DNA from: a virus
Lineage: Duplodnaviria; Caudoviricetes
Length of the DNA stretch: 62,462 bases
Direction: 5' to 3' (one strand)
IMG/VR virus record: IMGVR_UViG_3300032235_001256
Location: 1 to 62,462 of that record
Below, one piece after another: positions 18,663 to 51,565 of this stretch. Numbering within the stretch: the first letter of the stretch is position 1; the number at the start of each line of letters is the position of its first letter. A program made the position numbers and the translations under genes. The notes under the pieces were generated by a model. It did not search any database, was not told the origin of the DNA, and saw only the letters and a list, made by a program, of their open reading frames with translations.

Positions 18663-19013
18663 TCAGAATTCGGTTTTTGAGACTAGGTCCAATACTGCAT
18701 CGACTTTGTCAGCGGCATCACGCTGGCCAGCAGAATCAAGCGCAGCAGCTACCTTGACCAGCTCGCCCATGAGGGATGCCTTGCGGCTCTGACGAGCATT
18801 TAGGGCAAATTGAATCTGACCGAGCAGCTCGCGCTGAGCCTTGGTCAGCTTCTTGTCGCCCTCTGCCATCTCCTGCAGCTCTTTCTTTTTCTTCTTTAGA
18901 AGAGAGGTCGGAATCTTCTTGTCTTCCGGGATATTGAGCTTCTTGTGTAGCTCGCCCTTTTCCTCTAGGCTGACCGCTCCTTGCATCCACTTGTTGTCTT
19001 TTCCTTTTGCCAT
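18663..19013 (-). CDS. Small basic protein with the shared helix-turn-helix module
   Basis: KWMQGAV...KGELHKKLNIPEDKKIP; C-terminal LVKVAAALDSAGQRDAADKVD; GGAG RBS. Confidence 0.7.
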   Translation of the reverse strand: MAKGKDNKWMQGAVSLEEKGELHKKLNIPEDKKIPTSLLKKKKKELQEMAEGDKKLTKAQRELLGQIQFALNARQSRKASLMGELVKVAAALDSAGQRDAADKVDAVLDLVSKTEF

Positions 19014-19063
19014 TTTTACTCCGGATAGCTTGCTAGCTGATTATCGTTCGAGATATTTAGTAG

Positions 19064-19291
19064 TCATGAGTCTGATAGTACATCTATCTCTACGTGGAAT
19101 CCGCGACTATTAAATGCTGCTATGGCGGCCTCATCTACGGCAGAGGATCGTGGATAGGCGAACTCTACCCTGCTTTTTACTATATCCAGAGCCCTTATGT
19201 ATCCTATCTTTCTGTGACCAAGGTAAACCTGAATGCCCTCATTCTGACTTGTAATATGGCCAATTATAAGTGAATCTGCTTCGATATTCAT
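19064..19291 (-). CDS. Hypothetical protein
   Basis: 75-aa ORF filling the gap between genes. Confidence 0.45.
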   Translation of the reverse strand: MNIEADSLIIGHITSQNEGIQVYLGHRKIGYIRALDIVKSRVEFAYPRSSAVDEAAIAAFNSRGFHVEIDVLSDS

Positions 19292-19365
19292 CTTTGCCGA
19301 AAGTGTATTGAGCTTTTTAGGCAGACGTGTATTCTTTTGCGCTATTACTTATTGCCGCATTAAAC

Positions 19366-20115
19366 ATGGCAAATTTTCCACTGTTTAAGCGCGCCGGGCG
19401 AGAGCTGCGATCCGAAGCAGGTATTGTCGATTTCATAAAAGATCTTGGATCCAAGGCCATCGACCTACTGGGTCCTGATATTGCAAAAACCATAAAAGAC
19501 TTGCCCGAAACTTTTTTAACAGGTATTGCCGATAAGGGTAGCGATTTGCATAGCAGCAAGAATCCTTCGCCCGAGCAGGTGAAAAAATACATTCAAAAGG
19601 TGATTTCTGAGCGCGAGAGCACCAGGCCAAGTGGCAAGAAGATTACCGTTACAAAGCTGCATACCGTTCCTGGCCCTGCCGGATCCGATGACGCATTCTA
19701 CAACAAGATCTTAACTGGGATCGGGGCTCCTGCAACTCCGGAAAATAAAAGGTTCATGTACGCTTGGCGGGCAGCCGAGGGAGGACAGGCTGCCTTTAAT
19801 CCATTTAATACTACGCAGGGCGCTCCGGGTGCAACGAACTATAATACAGCTGGCGTCAAAAACTACACCGGTGAAGATCAGGGCGTAGCGGCAACCGTAA
19901 AAACTCTGTTAAATGGCAGGTATAGCGAGATCATATCTGCGCTTCGCGATGGAGGGCCTGGTGCCTCTGCGGCAGCTGCCCAGGCTCTTGCTCGCAGTCC
20001 GTGGGGGACTGGAGAGCTGGTACTTAGGGTCCTGAAGGGCAGAGGTCAGCGCAAGCCCATTTACCAGCTACCTGAAGCCGAAGAGGAAGGCGAAACTATT
20101 CATATGAATAGCTAA
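19366..20115 (+). CDS. Putative lysozyme-like peptidoglycan hydrolase with an FPLFKRA leader
   Basis: ATG at 19366 (MANFPLFKRAG); AWRAAEGG...FNPFNTT...GVKNY...G..AT..TL.NGRY resembles lysozyme-fold muramidases. Confidence 0.55.
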   Translation: MANFPLFKRAGRELRSEAGIVDFIKDLGSKAIDLLGPDIAKTIKDLPETFLTGIADKGSDLHSSKNPSPEQVKKYIQKVISERESTRPSGKKITVTKLHTVPGPAGSDDAFYNKILTGIGAPATPENKRFMYAWRAAEGGQAAFNPFNTTQGAPGATNYNTAGVKNYTGEDQGVAATVKTLLNGRYSEIISALRDGGPGASAAAAQALARSPWGTGELVLRVLKGRGQRKPIYQLPEAEEEGETIHMNS

Positions 20116-20200
20116 TTCCGATCTTTGCTTGTAAATATAACTATCAATCCGGAAGCTCTAATTTAAACGAGGTCCCGTAATTACCGGCACTTGGAGATAC

Positions 20201-22173: not shown

Positions 22174-22704
22174 ATGCTGAAAATCGCAAAGCTTGAGCAA
22201 GAAATCAGCAACCTTGATAAGTCCGGCACGGACGAGGACACCCTTGCCGCTGCAGCCCTGGACTTCGCTGCCTACGACACAGACGATCTGCGCCGCGTCG
22301 CAAGCCTCGTAGCCGGATTTGCAGATGCCCTTGATGCCGATGGTCACCGCATAGCGGCTGATCGCCTGGATCGCGTACTGAGTAAGTTTGCATCGAATCC
22401 GGAGGCGTTCTGGGACCCACCAAAGCGCCGCAGCACAGAGATGTTGCCGCCCAATCGCTCTGCGCTTGGAGACATTGGCGCCAGCCTTAGCACCCGTCAC
22501 TCACCCGACTTGCCAGGGGTCCAGTTGGCTCGAGTATCGGATGGCGTTTATCGTGATCCGGTAACTGACAAGATTTATGATTTTAACAAGGGCTTTGTCC
22601 TAGATGACGGAACCAAGTATGTCGGAGGGTCGGTATCTGCACAAACACCGGCCGGCAGCGAAAGATTCCGGCCACTGCGACAACAAATCGAATTCGGCAA
22701 GTGA
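22174..22704 (+). CDS. Hypothetical protein with the shared helix-turn-helix module
   Basis: FADALDADGHRIAADRLD. Confidence 0.7.
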   Translation: MLKIAKLEQEISNLDKSGTDEDTLAAAALDFAAYDTDDLRRVASLVAGFADALDADGHRIAADRLDRVLSKFASNPEAFWDPPKRRSTEMLPPNRSALGDIGASLSTRHSPDLPGVQLARVSDGVYRDPVTDKIYDFNKGFVLDDGTKYVGGSVSAQTPAGSERFRPLRQQIEFGK

Positions 22705-22752: not shown

Positions 22753-23457
22753 ATGGCAACAAAAAACAAAATCCTTGGACATATAGATCGTGACATTATC
22801 ATCAAAATGCTTTCTGATGGAGAAAGTCCTCAGAACGTAGCCGAGTTTCTTAAAAAGAAATATCCCGGCAAGCACAACGCACATTTGAATGTACACTGGC
22901 GCACAATACACGATTTTCGTGATCGCTTCATGCCCTCTGGCAAGCTGAGCAAGATCGCCATCCAGGAGAGCGAAGTTCCACGCTGGGCAAAGGAAAACGC
23001 TGAGATCAAAGCCGAGCTAATCAAGTCGTCCGCCTATCAGGAAGCTATTGCCAAGCTTGCGCAGGAAGAGATAAACGTAAAGAAGGAGCTTGTCCAGCTT
23101 CTTACGATAATCAAAGGCCGCATGGAATTCTACTACAACGAGCTGCATGCCAGCGGCAAGATGGACGAGCGCAATGAGAAGGTGCTCCTAGAGCAAATGA
23201 AGCTGCTACTATCTATCTTGCAGCAGCAAGACAAGGCCGATACGGCCGCATCGGTCCAGTCAGCGGAAGTAAGCGTGAATATAAATATTGTTCGCGACCA
23301 TGCAACGGTTATCCGTGACGCAGTACGAGATACGCTCGATAGCGTAGATCCAAACTTAGCGATTGAATTCATGGAGCGTCTGAACCTGAAGATGAAGGAG
23401 CTCGAGTACACGGAGACCACCGGCCTTATCCCTCTTGGTGGGAGGATCAATGTTTAA
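22753..23457 (+). CDS. HTH protein, candidate terminase small subunit
   Basis: N-terminal HTH-like region, long helices, beta-like VSVNINI segment; lies upstream of TerL. The function is inferred. Confidence 0.4.
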   Translation: MATKNKILGHIDRDIIIKMLSDGESPQNVAEFLKKKYPGKHNAHLNVHWRTIHDFRDRFMPSGKLSKIAIQESEVPRWAKENAEIKAELIKSSAYQEAIAKLAQEEINVKKELVQLLTIIKGRMEFYYNELHASGKMDERNEKVLLEQMKLLLSILQQQDKADTAASVQSAEVSVNINIVRDHATVIRDAVRDTLDSVDPNLAIEFMERLNLKMKELEYTETTGLIPLGGRINV

Positions 23458-24832
23458 TTTCAACGAAGACAAACTTGACAATGAGATGCTGGAGTGCTTG
23501 AAAAGCATTTCTGCTAAAGCGGACAGGTGCGGAGTTGATCAACAGGATCTGGTGAAGTTCCTCTTCCTAGATAGAGTTTTAACAGATGCCCTCAGACATC
23601 TAAATGCAAAGCTATCAGAGTCAGACTACGAAGATCTCCTAGGCCACTTTGTCAGGTCAGAGGTCAGTACGCTAAAAGAAATAGCGAAAGAACTAGTGTC
23701 TGTTTTAGGCAAGAGCAAAGATCCTAATGAGACCCTGTCCTTCTCTCTTGGTAAAGAATTAAAGAAGGAAGCTTACCCTATGCGGGTAGATACAGCTGTA
23801 TATACGGGTATAAAAAGGATTTTCCCCTCTCTGGCGTCTCGGGCGGCAAGCCTTATATCCTCAGGCGTTTTAGAGGCAGACGCGATTCGTAGGGTGATTT
23901 CTGATCTGGACATGGATGACCGCTTGGCCTTCCTCTCCTGGTATGGATTAAAGTACAAGTCCGGTAGGAATTTAGGCTACCTGAGTGCCCAGGAGGACGT
24001 TTTGATTAAAAAGGTTGCATACGGCCCCGAGGGCCCAGATAGCGCATTCGTCTACCAGTTCATGAGCAAGCAGCCTGCCCAGGCAGCCCCTGTTGCGCAG
24101 CCGGCGCGCGACCACCAGGCGGATCCTATGTCTGCAGAAGAGTTTAAGAAGATGCGCGACAAGATGGTCGGCCGGACTTTTGCTATTGACAAGCTGCTAG
24201 AAAAATATCGTCACCTGCTTAAGGAAGAGCAGTTCGATGCAGTCGAGGATAGCCTCAATGTTCTTCGCAAGAGCATTCGCAAGCTCAAAGTTGCCACTCT
24301 TCAGGATGTTATCGAGAAGGTGGCCTTTACTGCGGAGCAAAATGATTGGTTCGAGGGCGCCGACGTAATTCGCAAGATAGCTGCTCCGGATGAAGCGTTC
24401 GTAAAGGTTGCTGGCTCTATTTCCCGCCCAGATGACCTAGAGGCTGTCCTAAAGTCGCTTGAGGAGATCTCAGCGTTCCTCCGCCAGCGCGCGATCATCA
24501 GGGAGCTGTCGGCCAGGGATATTGATATTTTTAATCTTGGCTTCGGCCATATGCCTGAGATCGGCGACGCCGCCGCAAAGCTAATGGAAGCCTTCAACGG
24601 CTCCGCGAACAAGATCGATGATCTCGTCGGCAAGCTCCGCGCAGAGCTCCAGCAGCAGACCGCTCCAAAGATGGCTCCTGCTGTCGTTAAAACGGTCGTC
24701 AAGCCGCAGGATCTTCCGCTCGTCAAGGCACTCGAGCCACCACCTCCGGAAGCATCTGAGGGCACTACAGAATTAGCTGCGCCAGATGCACTGCCGCTCG
24801 CACCACCACCTGTGTTGCCGCCCAAGGTTTAA
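23450..24832 (+). CDS. Hypothetical helical head-module protein with a Pro-rich tail
   Basis: GGAGG RBS before ATG 23450; several KxA sites. Confidence 0.7.
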   Translation: MFNFNEDKLDNEMLECLKSISAKADRCGVDQQDLVKFLFLDRVLTDALRHLNAKLSESDYEDLLGHFVRSEVSTLKEIAKELVSVLGKSKDPNETLSFSLGKELKKEAYPMRVDTAVYTGIKRIFPSLASRAASLISSGVLEADAIRRVISDLDMDDRLAFLSWYGLKYKSGRNLGYLSAQEDVLIKKVAYGPEGPDSAFVYQFMSKQPAQAAPVAQPARDHQADPMSAEEFKKMRDKMVGRTFAIDKLLEKYRHLLKEEQFDAVEDSLNVLRKSIRKLKVATLQDVIEKVAFTAEQNDWFEGADVIRKIAAPDEAFVKVAGSISRPDDLEAVLKSLEEISAFLRQRAIIRELSARDIDIFNLGFGHMPEIGDAAAKLMEAFNGSANKIDDLVGKLRAELQQQTAPKMAPAVVKTVVKPQDLPLVKALEPPPPEASEGTTELAAPDALPLAPPPVLPPKV

Positions 24833-24834: not shown

Positions 24835-25542
24835 ATGGAAACCGTTGCCTCTATAATGAAGCAGGTAGCATCATTGGCAGCAGCCAATGGTTTACCTAGG
24901 CCATTTATAGTTGGCGGTGCAGTCAGAAATATGATAATTGGAGCTGATCCGGTAGACTACGACATTACCTGTGGCAGCCCAGATAATCTTATTCTGGCAG
25001 ATCTGGTTGCGGAGTACTTTGGCGTGCCGATTTACGAAACAGGCAGCGGCTCCAAGAAGATGGTTGTGGATGGCATAGAGCTGGATTTCAGTCCGCACAT
25101 GCTCTACACAGAGCACAAGGATGGGCCATTCGCGTCCGAACTATACAGCCGGGACTTTACGATCAATACGATGATGATCGCCTGCGACGATGGCCACTTT
25201 GTTGATGTTTGCGGTGGGCTGGAAGATCTAAAAAGCAAAACTTTACGCTGTCCACTGAGCCCCGAGGTCACGTTTCGCGATCCGGTCAGGCTCCTGAGGG
25301 CGATAAAGTACATCGCAGAAGGAATGCAGCCAGAGCAGCAGCTTGAAGACGAGCTGATCAAGCAGTTCCATAAAATTGAAAAGATCAATCACAGACATGC
25401 TGGCAGGATTATAAACGATGCGATTCGAAAAAATCCTGAAATAGTCAGCTGGCTGTACGAGCACGATCTTATCAAGCACATACCAGTTACCAAGCTCGTA
25501 ATGAGGGAGCTGGCCCGCCAGAGGATGCTGCACCATGTCTGA
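24835..25542 (+). CDS. CCA-adding/poly(A) polymerase family nucleotidyltransferase (short)
   Basis: IVGGAVR, DYDI, RDFTIN and DPVRLLRA motifs. Confidence 0.85.
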   Translation: METVASIMKQVASLAAANGLPRPFIVGGAVRNMIIGADPVDYDITCGSPDNLILADLVAEYFGVPIYETGSGSKKMVVDGIELDFSPHMLYTEHKDGPFASELYSRDFTINTMMIACDDGHFVDVCGGLEDLKSKTLRCPLSPEVTFRDPVRLLRAIKYIAEGMQPEQQLEDELIKQFHKIEKINHRHAGRIINDAIRKNPEIVSWLYEHDLIKHIPVTKLVMRELARQRMLHHV

Positions 25543-27915: not shown

Positions 27916-30846
27916 ATGGTAAGCCCTAAGAAAGTCAAGGCATTAACGTCAAAAGACATCTTCAATGAAATCAAGAGAGATATCTCGATCATTGATCCCG
28001 TTAGCTTTGCAGAAAATAACCTGACCATAGACGGAAAACCATTCGACCTATCCGGGTCAGGATGGAAGTACATGGCAGAAATATACCGGGCAGTATCCGC
28101 TCAGGTAGAAAATAAAGAGGCCAAACCGATAGTTCTGCTAAAAGGCCGTCAGGTCGGCGCCACTATCATGGCCGGAGTGCTGAGCCTGCACATGGCCAGC
28201 TCTGGACTATACAGCACGGAATCAGGCAAGCCACCCATTCGAGTGATGCACGTTTTCCCAGATCTCAAGCGATGCGGCGTCTATGCAAAAGATATTCTTG
28301 CAAATCTAATAAGCGGCGCCAAGGATAACTACGTTGGCAAACGAGCTCTAAAGGTTACTAGGACGGTAGATCTAGAAGATACACAGACACAGAAAAACTT
28401 TATCGGAATGAGCAAGATTCGCGTCGACTCGATAGGCAAGTCCGGCGACCGTATTCGTGGTAGCACGCAGGATGTTTTGCTTTACGACGAGTGTTTCGTA
28501 GGTAACACATTCATCAAGACGGAAACTGGCAAGATAAAGATAAGCAAAATATACGACATGTTTGCTGCAGGAAAAGAGCTGCCTATCGTCAAGACGATAA
28601 ATGAGCAGACAATGGAGTTTGAGCACAAGAGGGTAGTCCACGCATGGAGGCGCGAACCCAAGCCTGTATTTGAGCTAAGATGCGGCAAGTACAGGGCGAA
28701 ATGCACTAAAGATCACAAGTTTTTGACCGAAGAGGGGTGGGTAGAGGCCCAGAATCTTAAGGTTGGAGATTTTGTAATTGGAGATCCCGGCAATAAATCA
28801 CAGTACCTTCGTGCTATAAATGATGACCAGCTCCAGATCGTACTAGGCTCGTTCCTGGGAGATGGAAATCTTCAAGAATACGCCAATAACTCCTATCGAC
28901 TTCGCGTCATGCATGGTTCTCGCCAGGAAAACTATGCAAAATGGAAGGCTGAGATGTTTGGGGTAGAATGTGTATTTGTTCCAGAACAGGGCAAGTACAA
29001 GAAGCCGGGATGGTGGTTCGCGACAAAGGGTTTCGGAATTCCGAACTGTTCTTTCCCGAAGAATCAGAAAAACAGCTGTCCACAGTGGGTTATCGACAAG
29101 ATAGACTGGAGAGGCGTCGCTATATGGTTCATGGATGACGGAAGTAACAATGCCAAAACTAAGCGCCACATAACCCTGCACACAAATTCTTTTGATGAAG
29201 ATTCGGTAGATAGGCTGGTTGCCAAGTTAATAAGCATGGGAGTCGCGTGCAAAAAAGCCATGGTATCTGGCAAGTATTTTGTCATAAAGATAAACAAGGA
29301 AGGGTCGGATGTTTTCCTTAATAAGGTTGCGCCATACCTACACTCAGATCTGCACTACAAGACTGATATTGTATGTGACACCGGCGATCTGCATTCTTGG
29401 GATTCGCAGTTTAAACCATATTCGTACAACGTAGTATCGGCCTTCAAGGATCTAAACCGCGAGGAAGCTGTTTACGATATAGAGGTCAAAGATAATCACA
29501 ACTTTATCGTTACGGGTCGCAATAGTAGCCAACTGCAAGACGGAGGTATTCAGGCCAAGAACTGCCAGGACATGACCCGCAGCGCTATAGAAAATACGCT
29601 AAAGGTTCTAACTGCAACCCCATACGGTGCTCCTACCAAGGGCGTACAGGTATTTTTCGGCACTCCCAAGCACTCCGGGTCTTTCTTCTGGACAATGTGG
29701 GAGGACTCAGACCAGCGCTTTTATCAGTTGCGATGCAAGCACTGCGATCACTACTTTTTCCTGTATAATCTAGAAAATGATGACTGGAATGAGATATGGA
29801 TCAAAGAAAACCTAATCAAGTGCCCATCATGCCTTAAGACGCAGGACAAGCGCGAAGCGGTCGACCTGGGCCGCTGGATATCGACCCGTCCAACTAATGC
29901 GAAGGGCGATCCGCAGAAGTATATAGGCTATCACTTCAATATGATGCTCAGCCCGCTGTTCACAAAAGAAAACGTTCTCGAGTACTGGCCGCAGCACAAC
30001 AAGAATGCATCGGAGCGAGCATGGCGAAACGAGACAAAAGGGCAGTTCTATTCGGCTAGCGAGGTTCCAATTACCCTTGAGGAGCTGTATGCTACTGCCC
30101 TGGACGAGTCCAGGGGCGTAGCAAAAAGTATAACAAACCCAGCAGGAAAGAATTTTTTTCTTGGCATGGACTGGGGCGAGAAGGTAGAGTCGGATGCAGA
30201 TCTAGAGGTAAAGCGCGGCAAGTCTTTCACCTGTGCGGTTATAATGTCGGTTGATCATACGGGTGTGTTGACCGTAGAAAATGCCGTAAGGCTAAAGAAG
30301 AACGACCCAGACTACAAAATGAATGTTGTTCGCAAGCTAATAGCTGATTTTCACATAGACCAGTCAGCAGCCGACTTCTACTATGGCAACGATTTTGTTC
30401 GGCTAGTGCAGCACAATGAAGGACTTAAAGATAAATTCCTTGGCTGCACAAACCTGAGCAACTCCAAGCGTGCCTTCTCGTATGACGAAAAAGACCTAAT
30501 GGTAGGCGTGAACAAGGATCAGGTGCTTGACGAGATATTTGCGCTATTTAAACGCGGTCGAATCAAGATCCCGGCAAAGGGAGACAGCCTTGAGCTACTG
30601 GGCTGGCTTGTTGATCACATCACTTCAATGGAAACCCATACGAAGACGAAAGATGGCATAGTACTTAAGACGTACAAAAAGGGGGTCATCCAGAACGACG
30701 GACTAATGGCACTGATGTATGCTTATACAGCTTACAAGTTCATGGTAACTCGCAAATTTACTGAGCAGAGTACCGAGGGTGTAAACAAAAAGAAGCAGGA
30801 TGACGTAGTCGTTCCCATCGTTGGCTATATCCCAAGAATGCGCTGA
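27916..30846 (+). CDS. terL: Terminase large subunit (GpA-like, with a Zn finger) containing an intein
   Basis: Walker A KGRQVGAT; Walker B VLLYDE; FGTP; CKHC/CPSC; nuclease LGMDWG; adjacent to the portal. Confidence 0.92.
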   Translation: MVSPKKVKALTSKDIFNEIKRDISIIDPVSFAENNLTIDGKPFDLSGSGWKYMAEIYRAVSAQVENKEAKPIVLLKGRQVGATIMAGVLSLHMASSGLYSTESGKPPIRVMHVFPDLKRCGVYAKDILANLISGAKDNYVGKRALKVTRTVDLEDTQTQKNFIGMSKIRVDSIGKSGDRIRGSTQDVLLYDECFVGNTFIKTETGKIKISKIYDMFAAGKELPIVKTINEQTMEFEHKRVVHAWRREPKPVFELRCGKYRAKCTKDHKFLTEEGWVEAQNLKVGDFVIGDPGNKSQYLRAINDDQLQIVLGSFLGDGNLQEYANNSYRLRVMHGSRQENYAKWKAEMFGVECVFVPEQGKYKKPGWWFATKGFGIPNCSFPKNQKNSCPQWVIDKIDWRGVAIWFMDDGSNNAKTKRHITLHTNSFDEDSVDRLVAKLISMGVACKKAMVSGKYFVIKINKEGSDVFLNKVAPYLHSDLHYKTDIVCDTGDLHSWDSQFKPYSYNVVSAFKDLNREEAVYDIEVKDNHNFIVTGRNSSQLQDGGIQAKNCQDMTRSAIENTLKVLTATPYGAPTKGVQVFFGTPKHSGSFFWTMWEDSDQRFYQLRCKHCDHYFFLYNLENDDWNEIWIKENLIKCPSCLKTQDKREAVDLGRWISTRPTNAKGDPQKYIGYHFNMMLSPLFTKENVLEYWPQHNKNASERAWRNETKGQFYSASEVPITLEELYATALDESRGVAKSITNPAGKNFFLGMDWGEKVESDADLEVKRGKSFTCAVIMSVDHTGVLTVENAVRLKKNDPDYKMNVVRKLIADFHIDQSAADFYYGNDFVRLVQHNEGLKDKFLGCTNLSNSKRAFSYDEKDLMVGVNKDQVLDEIFALFKRGRIKIPAKGDSLELLGWLVDHITSMETHTKTKDGIVLKTYKKGVIQNDGLMALMYAYTAYKFMVTRKFTEQSTEGVNKKKQDDVVVPIVGYIPRMR
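28492..29562 (+). mobile_element. 357-aa intein with a LAGLIDADG homing endonuclease
   Basis: DE|CFVGNT start; TKDH block B; LGSFLGDG and IWFMDDG; VYDIEV..NHNF block F; AKN|C end. Confidence 0.92.
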
Positions 30847-30854
30847 GGTAGAAT

Positions 30855-40181: not shown

Positions 40182-40325
40182 ATGTTTGACTTTAGCCAGT
40201 TTGAGATTCAGTCAGAGATACGCGAACTAAGGGAGTTGGGTCTAGATTCTGAAGAAATAGACGGATATATATGCTTCTTTTGGGATTTCCCTATAGAAAG
40301 TGAGGAAGGTTATGGCAACAATTGA
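40182..40325 (+). CDS. 47-aa acidic protein below the ORF-track cutoff
   Basis: AGAGG RBS; MFDFSQFEIQSEIRELRELGLDSEEIDGYICFFWDFPIESEEGYGNN; overlaps the next start. Confidence 0.55.
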   Translation: MFDFSQFEIQSEIRELRELGLDSEEIDGYICFFWDFPIESEEGYGNN

Positions 40326-40521
40326 TATTGCAGACGAAATTGCAGCCGGCATGCAGCAGGCGATCAAAGAGAACTCACCAGCACCAGAAGCCGGCTATTT
40401 CTCTGGCATTGCGCAGCAGCTCGCCGGCACTGCGAGCGAGCTTGATCAGGCCGGCAGCCCGCTCGCTGGGAATGTTGATGCGCTGCTCAACAAAATGGTA
40501 AGCGTGCTAGGAGAAGACTGA
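40312..40521 (+). CDS. Small protein carrying the shared helix-turn-helix module
   Basis: ATG at 40312; TASELDQAGSPLAGNVDALL. Confidence 0.65.
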   Translation: MATIDIADEIAAGMQQAIKENSPAPEAGYFSGIAQQLAGTASELDQAGSPLAGNVDALLNKMVSVLGED

Positions 40522-41235: not shown

Positions 41236-41838
41236 ATGAATAAGAAATTGTCCCTGTTTGCAAGCATGTTTGAGGCCGATACGGGTATGGATGTTCGTGA
41301 CGAGTTTGTATCCGCCTGGGCAGATGCACTCACGCAAAAGAATAACCAGCGCAACCGCAAATTTGTTGCAACGGATGTGGATAACTGGCTCAAGACCATG
41401 CACGAGGAAATTGCCGAGTGCGATGAGTCGGCGACCGTGCGCGTGTGGCTCGATGAGCTAAATGATCTTTTTTGTGTTTCGGTTGTTGATGCGTCGGGCT
41501 GCTCCGAGTTCTGCGTTGCCTCGCCCCGCAACCCCAAGACGGAGACAGAGGAGCTCATTCTAGCCGTAATCAATGGTGGTCCGGAGGCGCAAGAGGCTTT
41601 CCGTGGCGCAGTGTTGAAGCTAAAGGGCGACAGCCCAGCGGAGACCGTTTCAGACAAGAGAGAAGAGCGACTAGCTGACTCTGTTGTCGTGGACGATGAC
41701 GATATGAGCGATGACGAGCTGGATGAGCTAGCGGACAAGCTGGATAAAACCGCCTCGCTGCTAGCTAATAATCAATCTGCAGCGTATATGGTCGAATTAG
41801 CAGCCTCTCGTCTTCGAGAGATCAAAGCAGGTGAGTGA
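41236..41838 (+). CDS. Hypothetical acidic protein
   Basis: GAGGT RBS before ATG 41236. Confidence 0.65.
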   Translation: MNKKLSLFASMFEADTGMDVRDEFVSAWADALTQKNNQRNRKFVATDVDNWLKTMHEEIAECDESATVRVWLDELNDLFCVSVVDASGCSEFCVASPRNPKTETEELILAVINGGPEAQEAFRGAVLKLKGDSPAETVSDKREERLADSVVVDDDDMSDDELDELADKLDKTASLLANNQSAAYMVELAASRLREIKAGE

Positions 41839-42227
41839 TGTCTAAGTTTGTAGATGTAGACGGTATACTGGCAGAAGTGCAAAAGAAGATGGCTGGGCAG
41901 ACCACTATGCCGAAGAGCGTTTTCCGACAGGAAGAGGCCCGCGCAGATGTGGATGTTCAGTCAGAGCTAAACAAGCGAGCTGAGGCATACTTTAGCGACA
42001 TGCTTGATGATGTTCACAAGAAGTCAGTAAAGCTCGATGGTATTGACGCAACGGTGATGACCGCCCAGGATCGCCAGGCCGTAGCCATGAAAATGCTTGA
42101 TGCAGGCAAGCGCAAGAAGCTTGCTGCGGTTGCCGATCAGCTGCGAGTGGTGGCCGACCAGGCCGACGCTTCAGGACTTTTTAAGCAGGCTGCCTCGCTC
42201 CGCGAAGCTGCTGCAAAGCTTTCTTGA
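41838..42227 (+). CDS. Hypothetical protein with the C-terminal shared helix-turn-helix module
   Basis: VADQADASGLFKQAASL. Confidence 0.65.
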   Translation: MSKFVDVDGILAEVQKKMAGQTTMPKSVFRQEEARADVDVQSELNKRAEAYFSDMLDDVHKKSVKLDGIDATVMTAQDRQAVAMKMLDAGKRKKLAAVADQLRVVADQADASGLFKQAASLREAAAKLS

Positions 42228-43002: not shown

Positions 43003-44163
43003 ATGACGCTCAGCTTAACTTCTATTCCAACAGCTCCTGATGCCTCTCCAAAGGGCCTCTCCGCTTCTCCTGGCGCCGGCCGGAAGGGGCTCGGTGCTGA
43101 CTATGTCGTTGCCCTCCAAAAGGCTCTAAGGAGCAATGATCCCACGATTGATCTCGGGAAAACAGGGCCCCTGAAAGATGGAGTAGACGGCCGCTACGGC
43201 AACAAGACTCGCGATGCTGTCAAGGCAGTCGCAAATAAGCTTGGAATCAAGGATCCTCTTGACAATTCCGGCCGCCCCAGCGCAGAAATGAACGCGAAGC
43301 TTGGCCTAGCAAATCCGCCGCCCAGGCCCTCCGCACCAGGCGCTCCGGCAACACCTACGCCTCCTACCGACAAAGGAGCAAAGGCTCCCGCTTCCGAAAA
43401 CGAAGACAAGGATGTTCTAAATCAATTCACGCTATCAGACGGCACAGTGTTCCTGATGGTCCCCTTTTTGCGCGGCTTCCCAAGAGGAGGCCTAACCCTA
43501 GAGGACGAGCCTTGGGCTGCCGTTCAGGCTTTGCGCCAGATGCAGTATGCCCTTGAATCAGGCGGTCTAAAGGTAGATAATAAGTTGCCGAAAAGCTTCC
43601 AAGGCATATCCACCATTGAGGAATATGATAACTACATGGACCAGGTCCGCGCGACTGTCCTAGAGATACAGACAAAATGCAGACTTGTTGCAGATTCTTT
43701 TATAGCCGCAGTCAATCGCAGACGAAAGGAGCTTGGACTGCCGCCAGCAAGCAAACCAGCCACCAAGGGGAGCAAAGACGAGGTCTACGGCTTCGAATTA
43801 GCCTACTGGAACGGCGCTCTAGCTGGGGTTAGCATTGCCACTAGTGCTCAGGCGATACTGAGCACTAAACTCCTGCAGTTTATCAGGGGAACGAGAAGGC
43901 CACTGTTGACGCTTCTCAAAGAATCTGTGGATGTGAACCCGCTCTTTAAAGACTCGAAACTAAATGATGCTGCCGCCAAGGAGATCGGCAGCATAATTGC
44001 TGAGACCCAAACTGAGCTAGCCAGGCAAATAGACCCAGCTGACTCTGCATATTACTTCACATTCAACAAAGACCCTCCGGAGATGAAAAGCAGGCTGCAA
44101 AAGGTGCTGACAGATAGCGCCACAGTGCAGGAAATTAGGCAAGCTATTATCGATCAGGCCTAG
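43003..44163 (+). CDS. Peptidoglycan-binding-domain protein
   Basis: VVALQKAL...GVDGRYGNKTRDAVK (PG_binding_1-like); Pro-rich linker. Confidence 0.7.
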   Translation: MTLSLTSIPTAPDASPKGLSASPGAGRKGLGADYVVALQKALRSNDPTIDLGKTGPLKDGVDGRYGNKTRDAVKAVANKLGIKDPLDNSGRPSAEMNAKLGLANPPPRPSAPGAPATPTPPTDKGAKAPASENEDKDVLNQFTLSDGTVFLMVPFLRGFPRGGLTLEDEPWAAVQALRQMQYALESGGLKVDNKLPKSFQGISTIEEYDNYMDQVRATVLEIQTKCRLVADSFIAAVNRRRKELGLPPASKPATKGSKDEVYGFELAYWNGALAGVSIATSAQAILSTKLLQFIRGTRRPLLTLLKESVDVNPLFKDSKLNDAAAKEIGSIIAETQTELARQIDPADSAYYFTFNKDPPEMKSRLQKVLTDSATVQEIRQAIIDQA

Positions 44164-45333: not shown

Positions 45334-47043
45334 ATGACGATTGCCGATGAAATTGCAAAAGAGTTTGCCAAAAATCTGGCAGATAAACGAGCCGCAGCGC
45401 GCCAGCAGCTCGTTGCCGCTGCCGCCGACACAGAGAAGGCAATCCGCGAAAAGCGCCCGCGCAAAAGCGATGAAAAATCAATCATAGAGGAAGCTCACCC
45501 GGGCGAGGTTTTCGTTGCAGAGTCCGACGGCCTAGGGGGCATGGTTGGAAATCCAGAGCAGGTTCATGAGCAGATTCTTAATGCCCTGAACCGCCGTCCG
45601 TCCGCCTTCCCCTATCAGGGTCTTGTTGCAAATGCAATGCTGGACTTCGAGAAGACTGCCGAGACGCTCGAGTCACATGACCTACATGACGAAGCCGATG
45701 CTGTGCGAAAAATCGCGCAGGATTTGCTTGCGGTGTTGCAAAGGCGAGCGCAACTAGGCTCCACGACTCCGGGAGGAGTTGCAGATCCCGAGATTCTTGA
45801 TCCAGATCCCGATCAGACGCAGTCATCGAAGATACACAGGGCACCTGATATACAGGAAGCCGAATTAGTATCGGGGGAGGGTCGGACGACAAGTCAAACG
45901 CCCACCGAAACCAGGCCTCGCGACAATAGCGGCGTCGTATCCAAAAGTATCGAACAAACATCAAAAAATGCAAAAAAAGCGGGCGGCGCCCTTAGCAAGA
46001 TAAAGGGATTTGGAGGAAAAATTCTGGGCCCAATAGGACTGGTGATATCTGCGTGGGACATCATAGACTCCGCCAGGAGTGGTGACTGGGCCTCCATCTG
46101 GACCACTGCCGGTGGCGCAGCAATTGGTGCGGCTGCGGCTGCGGCGGGCGTAACTGCGGCACCGGCACTAATTGCCGCCGGCGTAGGCACTGCCGTGGCA
46201 AATGGGATTAGCGCAGCCTTGACTGCCACTGCTCAGGATGGGATAGACGTAGATCTAGCCGAGCTTGCAGCGGACATTGAATCAGAAGTTGCCGATGATT
46301 CTTACGACCCTGCCGCTTACACAGATCCGGTTAAAAAGGAGAAGGCAGAAGCTGCTCGCAAGGCTCTAGAGGCCATGCGCGAGCGGATAAACAGCATATT
46401 GCTAGCCAGGAAGACATTGGAGCGCGAGGCCGGAAAGGGAGAGCAGATGGATCCCGGCACTGTAGGAGTTGCTATCGCCAGTATCGCCGAGAACAACAGG
46501 GCACTGGGAGAGGCATTTGCGCAATTCGAGAAGGCGGGCAGCGAACTTGACCTAACTTTCCTTCGTGACACACTTGGCTTTGGATTTCCGAAGATCAAGA
46601 ATCGCATTTCAGATGTTAATGAATCAGTTTCAGAGTTTGAAAATGCGATGGAGGAGCTCTACACCAAGATCAAACCTCAGGTCGATACTATTCGCAGCCA
46701 GCTAGAGGACCAGGAAGGGCGCGCATCACAGTTGATGAAGGATATTTCATCTGGAGCTGCCACTGGGTACGGGGTAAGGACCTCGCTCGGTCTTCCTACA
46801 AAGCTAAAGAGTGACGTAGACAATCCTGATCACGTAAAGGAAGTCCAGGGCTTTCTGGGAGTGCGAGAGACCGGTGAGTGGGATGAGCCGACGATGGACA
46901 AGATTCGCAAGATACGCAATCGCTGGATCGGCTTTCACATCGATATGGCCAAACACGTCACGGAGGACATCTTGAAGGCTTCCACCAGGGAAGAGCTGGA
47001 TGATCTTGAACAGCTCTGGCAAAACAGACTCGCAGGCAACTGA
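45334..47043 (+). CDS. Candidate ejection protein: Gly/Ala hydrophobic helices, coiled coil, PG-binding-like C-terminus
   Basis: GGAAIGAAAAAAGVTAAPALIAAGVGTAV; VKEVQGFLGVRETGEWDEPT. Confidence 0.6.
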   Translation: MTIADEIAKEFAKNLADKRAAARQQLVAAAADTEKAIREKRPRKSDEKSIIEEAHPGEVFVAESDGLGGMVGNPEQVHEQILNALNRRPSAFPYQGLVANAMLDFEKTAETLESHDLHDEADAVRKIAQDLLAVLQRRAQLGSTTPGGVADPEILDPDPDQTQSSKIHRAPDIQEAELVSGEGRTTSQTPTETRPRDNSGVVSKSIEQTSKNAKKAGGALSKIKGFGGKILGPIGLVISAWDIIDSARSGDWASIWTTAGGAAIGAAAAAAGVTAAPALIAAGVGTAVANGISAALTATAQDGIDVDLAELAADIESEVADDSYDPAAYTDPVKKEKAEAARKALEAMRERINSILLARKTLEREAGKGEQMDPGTVGVAIASIAENNRALGEAFAQFEKAGSELDLTFLRDTLGFGFPKIKNRISDVNESVSEFENAMEELYTKIKPQVDTIRSQLEDQEGRASQLMKDISSGAATGYGVRTSLGLPTKLKSDVDNPDHVKEVQGFLGVRETGEWDEPTMDKIRKIRNRWIGFHIDMAKHVTEDILKASTREELDDLEQLWQNRLAGN

Positions 47044-47168: not shown

Positions 47169-47843
47169 ATGGCTCTATATCCTGTTCAGCCCGGCATTCA
47201 GCCGCTTGGCCTTTTTGATGTTCTTGACACCGAGCTCGCCGCCCTAAAGGGTGGTGAGGTCATGACCCTCGGCACCGCTCCCGTGGTCAACACCAGCACC
47301 GAGACCGCCGTTCCCGACGTTCTCGACGGCTACCACCTTAACGCGGCAGCCACCCGCCCCGTTGCGCAGCTCGCTGCGTCCGGCGCGGCGTTCGTTGCCC
47401 TTGCCGATGAGGGCACTGGTCCCGACTACTTCACCATGCTCGGCACGGTCGTCGGCGGCAAGGCCGGCCTCGTTGTCAGCGCTGGCGCCGTACTCGGCCC
47501 GCACACCGCTACCGCTTCGGGCAAGGTCACCCTTTGGGACAAGCCCGGTCTCTACGAGGTCACTCTCGACTCGATGGCCGGCGACTTCGTCAGCACGCTG
47601 ACCAGCAGCGGCCTCACCCCCGGCGTTGTTGTCGGTTTTGGCAGCGGCGTGGACAAGGGCAAGCTTGCCCACAACGGCTGCGCGAACAAGGTTGCCAGCT
47701 CAGGCTGTGCGATCTTTGTCGAGTTCGCTCACTCGCAGAGCCTCGTCACCACCCCCGCCTACCTGACCGGCGCGACCCAGACGTTTGATCGCGTCAAGGT
47801 CATGTTCCTCGGTTCAGCTGGCGCCGGCAAGGCCCTGACCTGA
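47169..47843 (+). CDS. Capsid decoration/cement protein
   Basis: Immediately upstream of the MCP; strongly biased codons like the MCP; own terminator. Confidence 0.7.
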   Translation: MALYPVQPGIQPLGLFDVLDTELAALKGGEVMTLGTAPVVNTSTETAVPDVLDGYHLNAAATRPVAQLAASGAAFVALADEGTGPDYFTMLGTVVGGKAGLVVSAGAVLGPHTATASGKVTLWDKPGLYEVTLDSMAGDFVSTLTSSGLTPGVVVGFGSGVDKGKLAHNGCANKVASSGCAIFVEFAHSQSLVTTPAYLTGATQTFDRVKVMFLGSAGAGKALT

Positions 47844-48027: not shown

Positions 48028-49032
48028 ATGTCAAATCTTTTTGATAACTCAGGCGAGCTCGGTGGTCTTACCACCCGCGACGCGCTGAAGAGCCTCGTTC
48101 GCATTGCCAAGGTCCTCGAGGAGGGCATGCCATCCAACGCCGTTGCCGCCGGCCGTCCTTCGACCACCGAGTCGCAGCGCGACGAGCTCGTTCGCCAGGC
48201 CATCCTCGACCAGGGCGGCAAGGTCGCTCTTGCTCAGGCCATGGCGCTCCCAATCCGCCGCAACCTTGATTACTCGGGCGTTGCTCGCCGCGGCCTCGTT
48301 GTTGACGAGCTCGCCACCGGCGTCCTTCCCCTCTATGAGCGCGACATCGACGTTGCCGCTTTCGTAATCTCGGCGAACGGCGCCGTTCCAGAGAGCCCCG
48401 TCCGTGGCGACCGCGTATTCGTCCCAGAGTTCGACATCGCCTGCCACCCACTCGTCCGCATCCGCGAGGCCCGTCAGCGCCGCTTCAATGTCATCGAGCG
48501 TACGGTCCAGAAGGCCAAGCAGGAGATCGCTGCCACCGAGGACGCGAACTTCTTCGCCGCCCTCGACTTCGCCAGCGACGCCGCCCTCGGCGGTGAGAAC
48601 ACCGCTCAGGTTCTCGGCGCCCGCATCTCGCGCGCTGATATGGTCGAGATCAAGTCAGAAGTTGATCAGTGGGACCTGCTCACCAGCAAGTTCTTCATGA
48701 ACATCCGCGACTTCCAGGACCTCCTCCTCTGGACGTCACAGGGTGGTACCTCGGCTGCTGAAGTCGACCCCGTCACGCACCGCGAGATCCTCCAGACCGG
48801 CCTCTACGCCAAGCTCTTCACCGCCGACATCATCGTCAGCAAGCTTGTTCCGTTCGGCAGCGTCTTCGGTTGCGCTGAGCCCGACATGGTCGGCGTCATG
48901 CCAATCCGCCAGAACGTCGAAGTCGTGCCAAACGACAAGATGGATCGCCTCAGCCTCGGCTGGACGGTATTCGAGACCATCGGTATCGGCATCGTCAACG
49001 CCCGCGGCGTCGCCGTCGGCCGCAAGTCCTGA
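48028..49032 (+). CDS. Major capsid protein (HK97 fold)
   Basis: LAQAMALPIRRNLDY...P.YERD...VPEFDI...RRFNVI.R...EDANFF...FETIGIGIVN.RGV; strongly biased codons; gene order. Confidence 0.85.
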   Translation: MSNLFDNSGELGGLTTRDALKSLVRIAKVLEEGMPSNAVAAGRPSTTESQRDELVRQAILDQGGKVALAQAMALPIRRNLDYSGVARRGLVVDELATGVLPLYERDIDVAAFVISANGAVPESPVRGDRVFVPEFDIACHPLVRIREARQRRFNVIERTVQKAKQEIAATEDANFFAALDFASDAALGGENTAQVLGARISRADMVEIKSEVDQWDLLTSKFFMNIRDFQDLLLWTSQGGTSAAEVDPVTHREILQTGLYAKLFTADIIVSKLVPFGSVFGCAEPDMVGVMPIRQNVEVVPNDKMDRLSLGWTVFETIGIGIVNARGVAVGRKS

Positions 49033-49048
49033 GCTTAGCTCTGGTCTG

Positions 49049-49084
49049 AAAGAGGGGTCGCCGCAGGGCGACCTCTTTTTTATT
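49049..49084 (+). terminator. Intrinsic terminator
   Basis: ggtcgcc-gcag-ggcgacc followed by a T tract. Confidence 0.85.
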
Positions 49085-49195
49085 GCGCCGTCTGATGCTG
49101 TTGACTACGAGCATCGACCGAATGAAGCAGAGCATATGGCTTTGTTTGGCAAGATGTTGCGCAGGCAGCAAGTAGTGTGATCAGGCAGGTGAGAC

Positions 49196-49552
49196 GTGAG
49201 CTTATTCGACTTATTATTTCGCAAGAGCTGTGCAGTGGAGTCTCACCCTGCCGATGGGTACCTGGCACAGCCGCCAGGGCACGACACCATTGTGCGCCCA
49301 GGCACATATCGTTTTAATAATCGCCAGGTAGATATTCTCGGTTTTCTGCCCAATGGCAAAATGAGCGCTACTCTATTCCTATGTCATGCGGGCTCGGGAA
49401 GCTGCTCAGAGTGGGGCACCTACGAGTTTTCTAGGGTATCGTACGACAAATCCCAAGAGATATGGGAAGCTATTGTTGGCAAGTCAGGCATAGTTATTCA
49501 TGTGACAAAACACCACGGCGAAGTAGCGCTGAAAATAGAGGTTGACAGATGA
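49196..49552 (+). CDS. Hypothetical protein
   Basis: GTG start with AGGTG RBS; ATGA-coupled to thyA. Confidence 0.55.
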   Translation: MSLFDLLFRKSCAVESHPADGYLAQPPGHDTIVRPGTYRFNNRQVDILGFLPNGKMSATLFLCHAGSGSCSEWGTYEFSRVSYDKSQEIWEAIVGKSGIVIHVTKHHGEVALKIEVDR

Positions 49553-50406
49553 CTGAAGCTTCCTATCTAAATATAATGCGTCAGATTCTTGATGAAGGGG
49601 TTGACGTAGAAAATGATCGCACAGGAGTTGGAACCCGAGGCATCTTTGGCGCTCAGATGGCATTTGACATGGATGACGGGTTTCCCCTACTGACCACTCG
49701 TCGCATTGCGTTTCGCATTGCATTCGAAGAGATGATGTGGTTTATCAGGGGGCAGACAGATTCCAAGATCCTTGAGCAGAAAAAAATCAACATTTGGAGG
49801 GGTAACACTACACGTGAATTCCTGGATGCAAAAGGACTGGCTCATCTCCCGGAAGGTGACGCAGGAAAGAACTACAGCTGGCAGCTACGCAACTTCAACG
49901 GCAGCCATGTGGGCTCCGGCTACGATCAGTTGGCCGCAATTGTATCTGGAATAAAGACAGATCCATCCAGTCGCCGCCATTTTGTTAGCTACTGGAATCC
50001 GCAGCAGGTGCTGACAGAGGCAGCTCTGCCGCCCTGCCATGTAAGCTGGGCAGTGCAGATTGCCGGAGGCAGGCTAAATCTATCCTTCCAGATGCGGTCT
50101 AATGATTTCTATCTAGGAAATCCGACAAATATCGCAGGATACGGGTTCCTGCTGCACGCCCTCGCCAATTTGGCCGGCTATCGTCCCGGCCGACTTGTGT
50201 TCCAGGGATCTGATGTGCATCTGTATAAGAATCAGTTAGATAACGCAATGATACAAGTCACTCGCGAGCCGCTGCCGTTGCCAGGATTTCGCATAAACAA
50301 ACATCTGTCTACTTTAGATGACCTGCTTGCTCTGCAGTATTCTGATGTAGAGGTAGTGGGGTATGCGCACCACCCAGATTTGCCAAAGGTTGAGATGGCG
50401 ATATGA
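49549..50406 (+). CDS. thyA: Thymidylate synthase
   Basis: DRTGVGT, GFPLLTT, ALPPCH, MRSND..LG.P.N, DVHLY.N. Confidence 0.95.
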   Translation: MTEASYLNIMRQILDEGVDVENDRTGVGTRGIFGAQMAFDMDDGFPLLTTRRIAFRIAFEEMMWFIRGQTDSKILEQKKINIWRGNTTREFLDAKGLAHLPEGDAGKNYSWQLRNFNGSHVGSGYDQLAAIVSGIKTDPSSRRHFVSYWNPQQVLTEAALPPCHVSWAVQIAGGRLNLSFQMRSNDFYLGNPTNIAGYGFLLHALANLAGYRPGRLVFQGSDVHLYKNQLDNAMIQVTREPLPLPGFRINKHLSTLDDLLALQYSDVEVVGYAHHPDLPKVEMAI

Positions 50407-50855
50407 GTAAATTGATCGGGATAGCTGCAGTATCGGAGAATGGCGTAATTGGTCGTGGCAACTCCCTGCCGTGGCACCTGCCAGAGGACTTGGCCTGGTT
50501 CAAATTCGTAACCCTGGGCCATACGCTTGTGATGGGTCGCGCCACCTATAATTCCATAGGCCGCCCACTTCCTGGCAGAAAAACGTATATTCTCACGAGA
50601 TCGCCATCCATCCCCTCGGAGATCAGCAGCCTGGCCGAAGCGCACTCGGACTCAGGCTTCATCTTCTTGTGCGGCGGCTCAGAGGTATATGCACAGTTTT
50701 TATTTGACTGTGACGAGTTGCTGATTACTCATGTAAAGCAAGAGGTTGACGGCGACAAGTATTTTCCTTATTTTCAACACATGTTCCATGCGACAGAAAC
50801 ACTCCGGTCAAACGATGAGTATGATATTATCAGATATGCGAGGAATCCACGATGA
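50403..50855 (+). CDS. folA: Dihydrofolate reductase
   Basis: NGVIG...LPWHLPEDL..FK, VMGR.T..SI.RPLPGR, GG..VY, GD.YFP. Confidence 0.95.
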   Translation: MSKLIGIAAVSENGVIGRGNSLPWHLPEDLAWFKFVTLGHTLVMGRATYNSIGRPLPGRKTYILTRSPSIPSEISSLAEAHSDSGFIFLCGGSEVYAQFLFDCDELLITHVKQEVDGDKYFPYFQHMFHATETLRSNDEYDIIRYARNPR

Positions 50856-51229
50856 AGCATTCTAGTGCCGCCTGGCGTTGGGGTTCTGCGGAGCATCGGG
50901 CAGAAGTCATAGCGTCCGCACTCCATTGTTTTTTTAATAAGAGCGCCTACGAGCCGGATTTGCGCGGCCTAACCAGCCGAGTGGCCGTGATCGCCGACAG
51001 CGACTTTGATGACGAGTGCATTATAATTGGAAATCTTGCAGGCTTCATTTCTTTTGAGATAAATGCAGCAAGCCCTTATGTCGGTGGTGGTGAATTCATG
51101 GATTGGGCCATGAGCAGTGCTGCCAGACTCGAAGGTCTCGCCTCTCTCGATCTTTCTCTAAAGATAACGGGACGCAACTGCGTCCCGCTAGCGATCTGCC
51201 TTATGCGCAAGAAGGGATCAGGCCTCTAG
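50852..51229 (+). CDS. Hypothetical protein
   Basis: ATGA-coupled to DHFR. Confidence 0.5.
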   Translation: MKHSSAAWRWGSAEHRAEVIASALHCFFNKSAYEPDLRGLTSRVAVIADSDFDDECIIIGNLAGFISFEINAASPYVGGGEFMDWAMSSAARLEGLASLDLSLKITGRNCVPLAICLMRKKGSGL

Positions 51230-51565
51230 TCCGCCCTCGAATGACTCAACAACGCCGGCTCCGTGTTCACGCTTAAGCTCTTCGATTTTGCTAGCGGCCG
51301 CACTGCGAGCCGCTTTTACGTTTTTGCCAATAAACCTGATCGCCGGACCCATCGGGTTCGGATTCTCCAGTTCGTGGACGGTTATTTCGCAAGCGACCAT
51401 GCCCTTCTCCCGCTTAAATGTGACATGAACCGACTTTTTTACTTCCTGTTCGGCGAGGATTAGCAGGTTAGCGGCCGCATCCATATGAGCTGCAGCGCGG
51501 AACATGCCGGCTTGGTCTAGCTGGTTGGCGAGCGCGTAGATGTTCTTTATAATAGTTTTGTTCAT
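51218..51565 (-). CDS. Small protein with the N-terminal shared helix-turn-helix module
   Basis: Start at 51565 (GGAG RBS); LANQLDQAGMFRAAAHMD; CTATTACT upstream on the minus strand. Confidence 0.65.
   Translation of the reverse strand: MNKTIIKNIYALANQLDQAGMFRAAAHMDAAANLLILAEQEVKKSVHVTFKREKGMVACEITVHELENPNPMGPAIRFIGKNVKAARSAAASKIEELKREHGAGVVESFEGGLEA

Follow-up and report, generated by a model that had tools for sequence, protein, structure and literature searches.

A portable helical hairpin on otherwise unrelated proteins of a huge-phage lineage: a probable docking tag, tentatively addressed to the prohead

The internal proteins of phage T4 have in common only a 10–19-residue N-terminal propeptide, the capsid targeting sequence (CTS), which directs them into the core of the prohead before being cut off, and T4 Alt carries propeptides at both ends (PMC9026906). 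Encapsulation peptides of bacterial microcompartments are short terminal helices, joined by a disordered linker to unrelated cargo, that act both as an address to the shell and in co-aggregation (PMC12339742 and PMC7221423), while the P22 scaffolding protein requires its C-terminal helix-turn-helix in order to bind coat (bioRxiv 10.1101/2022.12.13.520362). Here we analyse a strongly charged alpha-helical hairpin (helix-Gly-helix) of ~32 residues that recurs on otherwise unrelated proteins encoded in a 62,462-base piece of a phage-G-like huge phage (IMG/VR record IMGVR_UViG_3300032235_001256; 'the window' below means this whole stretch) and in related records, numbered here G001 to G010. The window encodes a terminase, a portal, a protease fusion and a capsid protein. 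Because it is co-linear with 204–261 kb of G001, a 371,675-bp terminally redundant viral contig (74–91% nucleotide identity), and because the capsid proteins of the two are 99% identical, the window is part of a huge-phage genome of about 370 kb.

The hairpin seems to work most like the T4 CTS and the microcompartment encapsulation peptides while being a member of neither group, since its length, fold and sequence differ. In common with the CTS of IPI, IPII, IPIII and Alt, it is a short, usually N-terminal leader on otherwise divergent proteins with variable, fast-evolving payloads, and many two-copy carriers are tagged at both ends, as Alt is. Unlike the CTS, it is predicted to form a hairpin and has no sequence likeness to it; where a T4-type CTS is defined as an N-terminal propeptide of 10–19 residues, the present element spans ~32 and is N-terminal in 103 of the 144 proteins listed from the database scan described below, and it also occurs at internal or C-terminal positions. 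Its terminal position and the unconserved E/D-rich sequence that follows recall encapsulation peptides, but it is a two-helix charged hairpin in phage rather than a single amphipathic helix in bacterial metabolic loci. The likeness to the P22 scaffold lies in the helix-turn-helix fold, predicted by AlphaFold2 (AF2) with a local confidence (pLDDT) of about 70 in one carrier, open reading frame (ORF) 51218–51610, and with low confidence in another, ORF 33803–34696. In P22 the coat-binding residues of the hairpin are basic. By contrast, the conserved charges here are mainly acidic (Asp/Glu), the sequences are not similar, the window's protease-fusion protein lacks the module, and instead of a single C-terminal copy we find eight window and 14–18 G001 carriers, mostly tagged at the N terminus. 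Encapsulin cargo-loading peptides are extended C-terminal segments of about 10 residues encoded in cellular operons, by which varied cargo enters an HK97-fold shell whose classic cargo is ferritin-like; two representative proteins of the present family (P0080 and P0183) combine one or three hairpins with a ferritin-like or rubrerythrin domain, again with no sequence likeness to the encapsulin peptides. Polymorphic toxin and effector families combine a constant N-terminal trafficking domain with a variable C-terminal payload, are arranged in arrays and are routed to secretion systems; the hairpin proteins have the same constant leader, variable payload and array layout, but no secretion system is involved.

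Built on an alignment of 25 copies and later on 230 copies from 143 representative proteins, the consensus reads M-L/I-K-x-L-h-K-L-A-N-x-L-D-x-K-G-L-x-K-E-A-D-x-h-D-x-h-I-x-K-x-A (x, any residue; h, hydrophobic), the motif that was noticed initially being its core. Helix 1 runs through L-A-N-x-L-D, the glycine lies at the turn and helix 2 runs through K-E-A-D-x-L-D-x-h-I. Ala9 and Gly16 served as alignment anchors for the 230 copies and are 100% conserved there by construction; in a separate alignment (A6) they are invariant in 20 of 20 copies. Conservation in the 230 copies is also near complete at Leu12 (95%), Asp13 (99%), Ala21 (98%) and Asp25 (92%), and it stops past position 32, where Glu and Asp dominate. 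The KxA site that the initial annotation placed often beside the module is moderately frequent, Lys occupying position 30 in 38% and Ala position 32 in 41% of about 225–230 copies. AF2 models, built on shallow alignments of 4 and 6 sequences, place the glycine between two helices, in a turn of three residues: in the 130-aa product of ORF 51218–51610 (mean pLDDT 74) helices at residues 9–33 and 37–55 flank a turn at 34–36 (A-G-M) and precede a small beta-rich domain, and in the 297-aa product of ORF 33803–34696 helices at 178–189 and 193–205 flank the turn at low confidence (pLDDT 43–52). In the PDB the nearest sequence is a loop joining helices of a designed helical-repeat protein (E 0.017), and two helices of a superoxide dismutase are also among the best matches, so that part of the pattern is a general signature of helix C-caps and N-caps. 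PDB sequence searches with two carriers gave nothing below E 0.4, Foldseek found no match to the 130-aa carrier model in the PDB at E≤0.001, and the best ESM Atlas score for a carrier with an HExxH motif was an uninformative 0.79. The DNA of the copies is on average only 42% identical, with the third codon base shared at just 34% of identical residues, from which we infer that the copies are old and kept by selection on the protein, not products of recent duplication.

Leave-one-out hidden Markov models (HMMs) recovered all seven ungapped window copies at 9.2–20.3 bits, the best non-member among the 64 window proteins reaching at most 5.1 bits and 20 shuffled proteomes per model at most 8.5. 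When the seven-copy window model was applied to G001, 13 of 515 ORFs scored at least 8 bits and no reversed decoy did; seven of these 13 are not orthologs of window carriers, N-terminal copies among them. After iteration, 25 proteins (8 from the window, 17 from G001) scored at least 9 bits against a decoy maximum of 6.4. An independent 'canonical' model, made from 17 unrelated metagenomic proteins, none of them from the window or G001, found six window copies at 5.4–28.8 bits with a reversed-decoy maximum of −0.2. Single pairs barely beat shuffles (best 21-mer score 53 versus 43–49 in six shuffles); the window copies form linked groups of five and four, where shuffles give at most two. With the motif masked, the carriers are dissimilar except for window–G001 ortholog pairs. 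The initial proposal of a portable helix-turn-helix module on unrelated proteins is thus borne out by the leave-one-out HMMs, the G001 matches, the masked comparison and AF2, and the N-terminal, internal and C-terminal positions it described are all seen. Its count of about eight carriers needs qualification, for six are solid by the independent model and two are marginal.

All nine peptides quoted in the initial annotation were found in the six-frame translation, and the positions attached to them are ORF boundaries rather than positions of the motif. ORFs were called by a simple longest-ORF rule. A Lys-rich 116-aa protein (ORF 18663–19013, minus strand) carries the hairpin at its C-terminal end (18681–18806, core 18699–18761; leave-one-out 20.3, canonical 28.8 bits), and the G001 ortholog keeps it. 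In the 176-aa product of ORF 22174–22704 (plus strand) the hairpin occupies residues ~37–72 (22264–22389, core 22309–22371; leave-one-out 16.4, canonical 21.4 bits); syntenic G006 and G007 proteins match the G001 ortholog of this protein over 54 residues at 50–59% identity, and the G006 counterpart has the hairpin. Residues ~172–207 of the 297-aa product of ORF 33803–34696 (plus strand) form another copy (34298–34423, core 34343–34405; leave-one-out 10.7 bits, canonical 5.4 bits at the right place), and a 130-aa protein (ORF 41835–42227, plus strand) ends in a copy (42096–42221, core 42141–42203; leave-one-out 20.2, canonical 7.9 bits) that is kept in the orthologs of loci L001–L008. The hairpin of a 73-aa protein (ORF 40300–40521, plus strand; 40375–40500, core 40420–40479) has a one-residue deletion in helix 2 and scores 11.2 bits with the canonical model but just 2.6–5.1 bits with the ungapped leave-one-out models; it is conserved in the G001 ortholog, and a look-alike string is present in L007. 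For ORF 51218–51610 (minus strand; hairpin 51461–51586, core 51479–51541; leave-one-out 16.4, canonical 16.0 bits) the true start is probably Met16 (51565), because two of five homologs begin at that position, and this would make the module N-terminal, as in most relatives. The two marginal stretches lie in a 465-aa protein (ORF 23435–24832, plus strand; 24266–24391, core 24311–24373), where the leave-one-out score of 11.6 bits is raised by likeness to the second stretch and the canonical model misses it, and in a 569-aa protein (ORF 45334–47043, plus strand; 45601–45726, core 45646–45708; leave-one-out 9.2 bits, canonical 2.5 bits at the right place). In both, E, N/D and R replace D, G and D, and each is the other's closest match; they look like a divergent subtype at best, or simply marginal.

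Two further candidates were rejected. A partial match had been reported near the C terminus of a presumed scaffold (39740–39781, plus strand), but no model supports it: the 1306-aa protein concerned (36101–40021, plus strand), whose N-terminal region resembles a head-maturation protease (phrog_18299, 4.4e-12, residues 119–227), is a non-carrier, its best module score of 3.8 bits falling at residues 830–843, away from the quoted string. The N-terminal helix of the capsid protein (residues ~15–33, window 48028–48130), which is conserved in the clade and missing from the annotated gp27 of phage G, resembles helix 1 with one residue fewer before the glycine, and has no HMM support as a copy of the module.

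A HMMER profile was run in full against 1.84 billion representative proteins, of which 447 matched at E≤0.001 and 16 at ≤1e-10. Architectures were counted on the 150 matches listed, 144 of which were new: the module was present in 143 of the 144 and in more than one copy in 92, with a copy starting within the first 12 residues in 103 and ending ≤12 residues from the C terminus in 33. Two-hairpin proteins of just 67 and 95 aa are among the representatives. Ten representatives were looked up and all are metagenomic, two with metagenome-assembled genome (MAG) labels. The HMM scan suggested initially has thus produced matches in G001, in relatives and in this collection, with no decoy in any genome tested. 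A homolog search by word index, run with the 25-row profile, recovered nothing beyond orthologs of the training set. A pattern scan of a viral collection found 13 loci on contigs of 13.7–372 kb, eight of them of 109–372 kb, and the same pattern found just three loci in 185,579 prokaryote genomes, all on MAG contigs of 3–7 kb; the canonical module is phage-specific and almost absent from prokaryote genomes. Module matches number 18 in G001, 7 in G002, 11 in G006, 15 in G007, 23 in G008, 7 in G009 and 8 in G010; counted as ORFs, G006 has 12 carriers among 292 and G007 has 15 among 371, with zero decoys. The canonical model has no match in G003, G004 or G005, the window-trained model has one weak match each in G003 and G005, phage G has one weak, off-motif match only, and 16 additional loci centred on the capsid gene had no match to a loose pattern. 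The five genomes that were compared in full all lie at about the same distance from G001 (52–86 shared proteins, capsid identity 54–59%). In a tree of capsid proteins the motif-bearing genomes lie on one side of a poorly supported branch (64/99), the backbone being unresolved, and they may have a single origin.

Pfam-A and PHROGs v4 searches with 13 motif segments gave nothing significant (best DUF7273 at E 0.003, 18.1 bits against a cut-off of 31; best PHROGs E 0.0038), and when the 144 representatives were compared with Pfam, only sub-cut-off matches (Phage_T7_Capsid, KIF21A_4th) overlapped the motif stretch. One two-hairpin representative, P0076, matches the T7 capsid assembly (scaffold) family over residues 8–108 below threshold (E 1e-4, 23.2 bits, cut-off 27.1).

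Many carriers in G006, G007 and G008 are consecutive small genes of 44–582 aa (median 188), each beginning with the module and continuing with unrelated sequence; 28 of 35 distinct carriers in nine loci are N-terminal. Arrays of this kind are also present in G009 and G010. Six of the 144 listed representatives have a Pfam match above cut-off (ferritin-like, rubrerythrin, AP2, T4SS, DUF6671 and RCC1, the last probably a false positive), four of 81 belong to a PHROGs family, and two of the 35 array carriers have Pfam domains above cut-off, namely PilZ and the ArdC N-terminal domain. The 297-aa product of ORF 33803–34696 has HExxH at residues 130–134, invariant in four of four homologs. Gly/Ala-rich hydrophobic (Gly-zipper) segments occur in three carrier families of the window and G001, with a fourth borderline; that of ORF 45334–47043 has a hydropathy maximum of 1.77 at residue 262. 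Several window and G001 carriers are very basic outside the acidic tag, and one G001 carrier has DUF7178 and one DUF5661. The HExxH, Gly-zipper or hydrophobic, ArdC-N, PilZ and ferritin-like payloads give hints of delivered proteins. A full ArdC-like anti-restriction protein (ArdC-N plus zincin peptidase) adjoins a hairpin-gene array (L087:15283–16221, in G008, and L090:11086–12420), and the hairpin carrier with an ArdC-N domain is separate from it. Upstream of G001 carriers, enriched 7-mers are mainly ribosome-binding-site words. The word CTATGAAT lies 24–33 nt upstream of three G001 carriers (61508–61888, minus strand, 64865–65695 and 265859–267142) and of one further gene. A post hoc choice that shows no enrichment across the genome (11 occurrences against about 10 expected), it was rejected as a carrier promoter.

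The constant folded leader, unconserved acidic spacer and variable payload, together with the arrays and the presence of several copies in some proteins, argue that the hairpin is probably a portable docking or address module. As to where it docks, we rank the prohead first, tentatively, so that the hairpin would be a head-packaging address; the ranking rests on enrichment of carriers among head genes in two lineages, on the payload hints and on the T4 precedent. The head block of the window starts with the large terminase and portal genes (27916–32708, plus strand; phrog_675 and phrog_16240; Pfam Intein_splicing and LAGLIDADG_2); the major capsid protein is encoded at 48028–49032 (plus strand; phrog_2522 at 7e-62) and is 43.8% identical to gp27 of Bacillus phage G. 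Of the window carriers, three are encoded in the stretch that separates the protease fusion from the capsid gene, one follows the portal–M23 peptidase pair, another three are upstream of the terminase and the last is downstream of the capsid gene. In the interval from protease fusion to capsid gene, only a 235-aa protein (40521–41228), a 224-aa protein (47169–47843) and the capsid protein itself are conserved in the clade, the carriers there being fast-evolving. The head-gene span of G001, chosen after the fact, makes up 9.4% of the genome and holds 7 of 17 carriers (p=5e-4), and the interval from large terminase to major capsid protein holds four of the 17 (p=0.018). All seven matches in G002 fall within 1.7–19.3 kb, around the capsid gene at 11.8 kb, and one of the matching proteins, of 1039 aa, has two copies of the module.

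One huge-phage lineage has fused this hairpin to dozens of otherwise unrelated proteins, and we propose that the shared hairpin would bring their differing payloads to one common site, for which the assembling prohead is our first candidate. Carriers with several copies, or encoded among the head genes, may act as scaffold- or core-like hubs. N-terminal carriers with one copy would be enclosed as clients and delivered afterwards, together with the DNA. The hairpin is followed by a K-x-A/acidic stretch that could be a release point for the prohead protease. The route would be that of the T4 CTS on a different, larger structural element. A bolder version, which we regard as doubtful, makes the hairpin a universal 'postcode' by which dozens of interchangeable payloads are loaded into the capsid for co-injection, so that arrays would be arsenals of injected effectors, analogous to the polymorphic effector loci of secretion systems, and multi-hairpin proteins an internal hub; that these payloads comprise anti-restriction, membrane-active, peptidase and nucleotide-signal-binding proteins, and many unknown ones, is put forward as equally doubtful.

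Several observations weigh against a prohead destination. The payloads are mostly without annotation, as the Pfam and PHROGs counts above indicate. The variable position of the module and its multiple copies are unlike the T4 leader. The main arrays of tagged genes in G006, G007 and G009 lie about 90–120 kb from the capsid gene, and nine N-terminal carriers of G001 have non-structural surroundings (small ORFs of unknown role, RNA ligases, HNH endonucleases, RIIA). Phage G lacks the module, as do the complete relatives G003, G004 and G005, whose capsid proteins are equally similar, so that a partner as conserved as the capsid protein is not obviously implied. A GroEL-like gene also co-occurs with the module, which suggests a different partner. 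Two results bear on neither side: modelling the capsid protein in complex with each of two hairpin peptides gave scores of 0.04 and 0.03 (mark 0.32) in runs that lacked controls, and particle proteomics of phage G is uninformative on the tag because phage G lacks the motif.

The alternative that survives best, unlikely as we judge it, is that the partner of the hairpin is another hairpin: copies would pair into four-helix bundles, proteins with two or three of them would form a network, and those with one would attach to it as clients. Such a homotypic assembly or condensate need not be the capsid and could be a replication or assembly factory, and it is compatible with a capsid address rather than exclusive of it. 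The frequency of multi-copy proteins (92 of the 144 listed representatives, often with one copy at each end) speaks for self-association, as does the all-or-none distribution of the module across equally related genomes, which is expected where no separate receptor is needed. The small residues Ala9 and Ala21 and additional conserved hydrophobic positions on both helices would suit packing into a bundle. Microcompartment encapsulation peptides, for their part, both target cargo and drive aggregation or condensation (PMC12339742 and PMC7221423). Conversely, the highly charged K/E/D surface may favour a soluble monomeric hairpin.

It is rather improbable that the hairpin docks carriers to some other common partner, either a host protein (a protease, membrane complex or polymerase) or another phage hub, in which case the arrays would be batteries of host-takeover or anti-defence proteins acting from the cytoplasm. 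Arrays of small, fast-evolving genes in non-structural regions, and payloads such as ArdC-N, PilZ, zinc ribbons and AP2, are what such a role would lead one to expect, yet no candidate partner emerged, and the concentration of carriers in the head modules of G002 and G001 is left unexplained.

An unbiased profile brought up a phage chaperonin as a lead, and we give only a slim chance to the idea that the hairpin docks its carrier, as client or adaptor, onto it. Eight G001 proteins recur in two or more of G002, G006 and G007 while missing from both G003 and G005; two of them are carriers and one is a 582-aa GroEL-like protein (Pfam Cpn60_TCP1 2.6e-64; PDB GroEL 1e-111); the latter is one of three non-carrier G001 proteins found in all three positives and neither negative. 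Cpn60 occurs in six of seven motif-bearing records, G008, a 67%-complete fragment, being the exception, and in none of four motif-free genomes (G003, G004, G005 and phage G). There is one gene each in G001 (139026–140774; L171:1027–2772), G002 (244000–245511) and G010 (50228–51733), and there are two each in G006 (65172–66773 and 126038–127675), G007 (116808–118409 and 64668–66314) and G009 (71318–72847 and 121554–123062). In G006, G007 and G010 one GroEL copy is followed, 2–5 kb downstream and in conserved synteny, by two or three hairpin genes, and the coordinates of G009 give the same picture. Shared ancestry could nevertheless account for the co-occurrence (the capsid-tree branch of support 64/99), the chaperonin gene is far from any carrier in G001 and G002, and a PP-loop/TilS-like gene and a glycosyltransferase have the same presence/absence profile. 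To our knowledge, recognition of a tag that is folded and charged is not known for any chaperonin. The TilS-like PP-loop ATPase (tRNA lysidine synthase family; G001:18507–19139, L048) lies inside the N-terminal carrier cluster. Large proteins beside the GroEL-linked hairpin genes were considered as counterparts of the protease fusion and rejected, as they have no similarity to it.

Finally, it is very improbable that the copies share no function and are a generic, idealised helix-Gly-helix capping pattern recurring in helical Ala/Asp/Lys-rich phage proteins, for although the best PDB matches (the designed-repeat loop and the superoxide dismutase helix pair) and the near-shuffle scores of single window pairs are in keeping with this, reversed decoys gave zero in every genome tested, G001 has 14–18 copies against none by the canonical model in G003, G004 and G005 and a single weak, off-motif match in phage G, all of them genomes of similar size and kind, conservation reaches the surface charges and the initiator Met-Leu/Ile-Lys, and the copies are arranged in arrays.

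Other features of the window are recorded here. An intein with a LAGLIDADG homing endonuclease splits the large terminase gene (27916–30846; Pfam Intein_splicing, LAGLIDADG_2). An M23 peptidase gene directly follows the portal gene (33128–33730), and a head-block protein (43003–44163) has a weak peptidoglycan-binding match (E 0.002, below cut-off), a hint of wall-degrading proteins among the head genes. Thymidylate synthase and DHFR are encoded directly after the capsid gene (49549–50855), a tRNA nucleotidyltransferase-like protein at 24835–25542 and a patatin-like phospholipase at 55984–56799. Several fibre-like proteins are encoded as well, three of which (11197–15009, 15172–18597 and 52435–54912) have a common N-terminal stretch in their first ~30 residues, K-[IV]-R-L-G-x-[ST]-E-x-F-L-D-I-x-x-L-x-D-G-Y, with 21-mer scores of 78–82. 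This is probably the 'DGY' motif of the initial annotation and a common attachment domain. That annotation had taken the absence of DGY from the hairpin carriers as a sign that the two motifs partition proteins of the inside from those of the outside; DGY is indeed absent from all eight carriers, but since it occurs in just 9 of the 64 window proteins its absence is uninformative and the partition carries no weight. Two of the fibre-like proteins (15172–18597 and 52435–54912) have long, near-identical repeat arrays in common, with a recurring unit such as ...EIDTEESARAAGDAAL..., and weak matches to YadA-stalk and adhesin-type families.

Nearly all huge phages are uncultivated and the majority of their genes lack annotation, and in such genomes the hairpin marks 7–23 genes each as one functional class. 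As it has no significant match in Pfam-A or PHROGs, the module deserves a family model of its own. If the hairpin is a capsid address, the repertoire of injected proteins would be readable from sequence alone, the filling of large heads with many accessory proteins would be explained, and the module would be a peptide already at hand with which large phage capsids could be loaded with foreign proteins. Should the hairpin instead be a tag for self-association or for the chaperonin, it would represent a new organising principle for phage proteomes.

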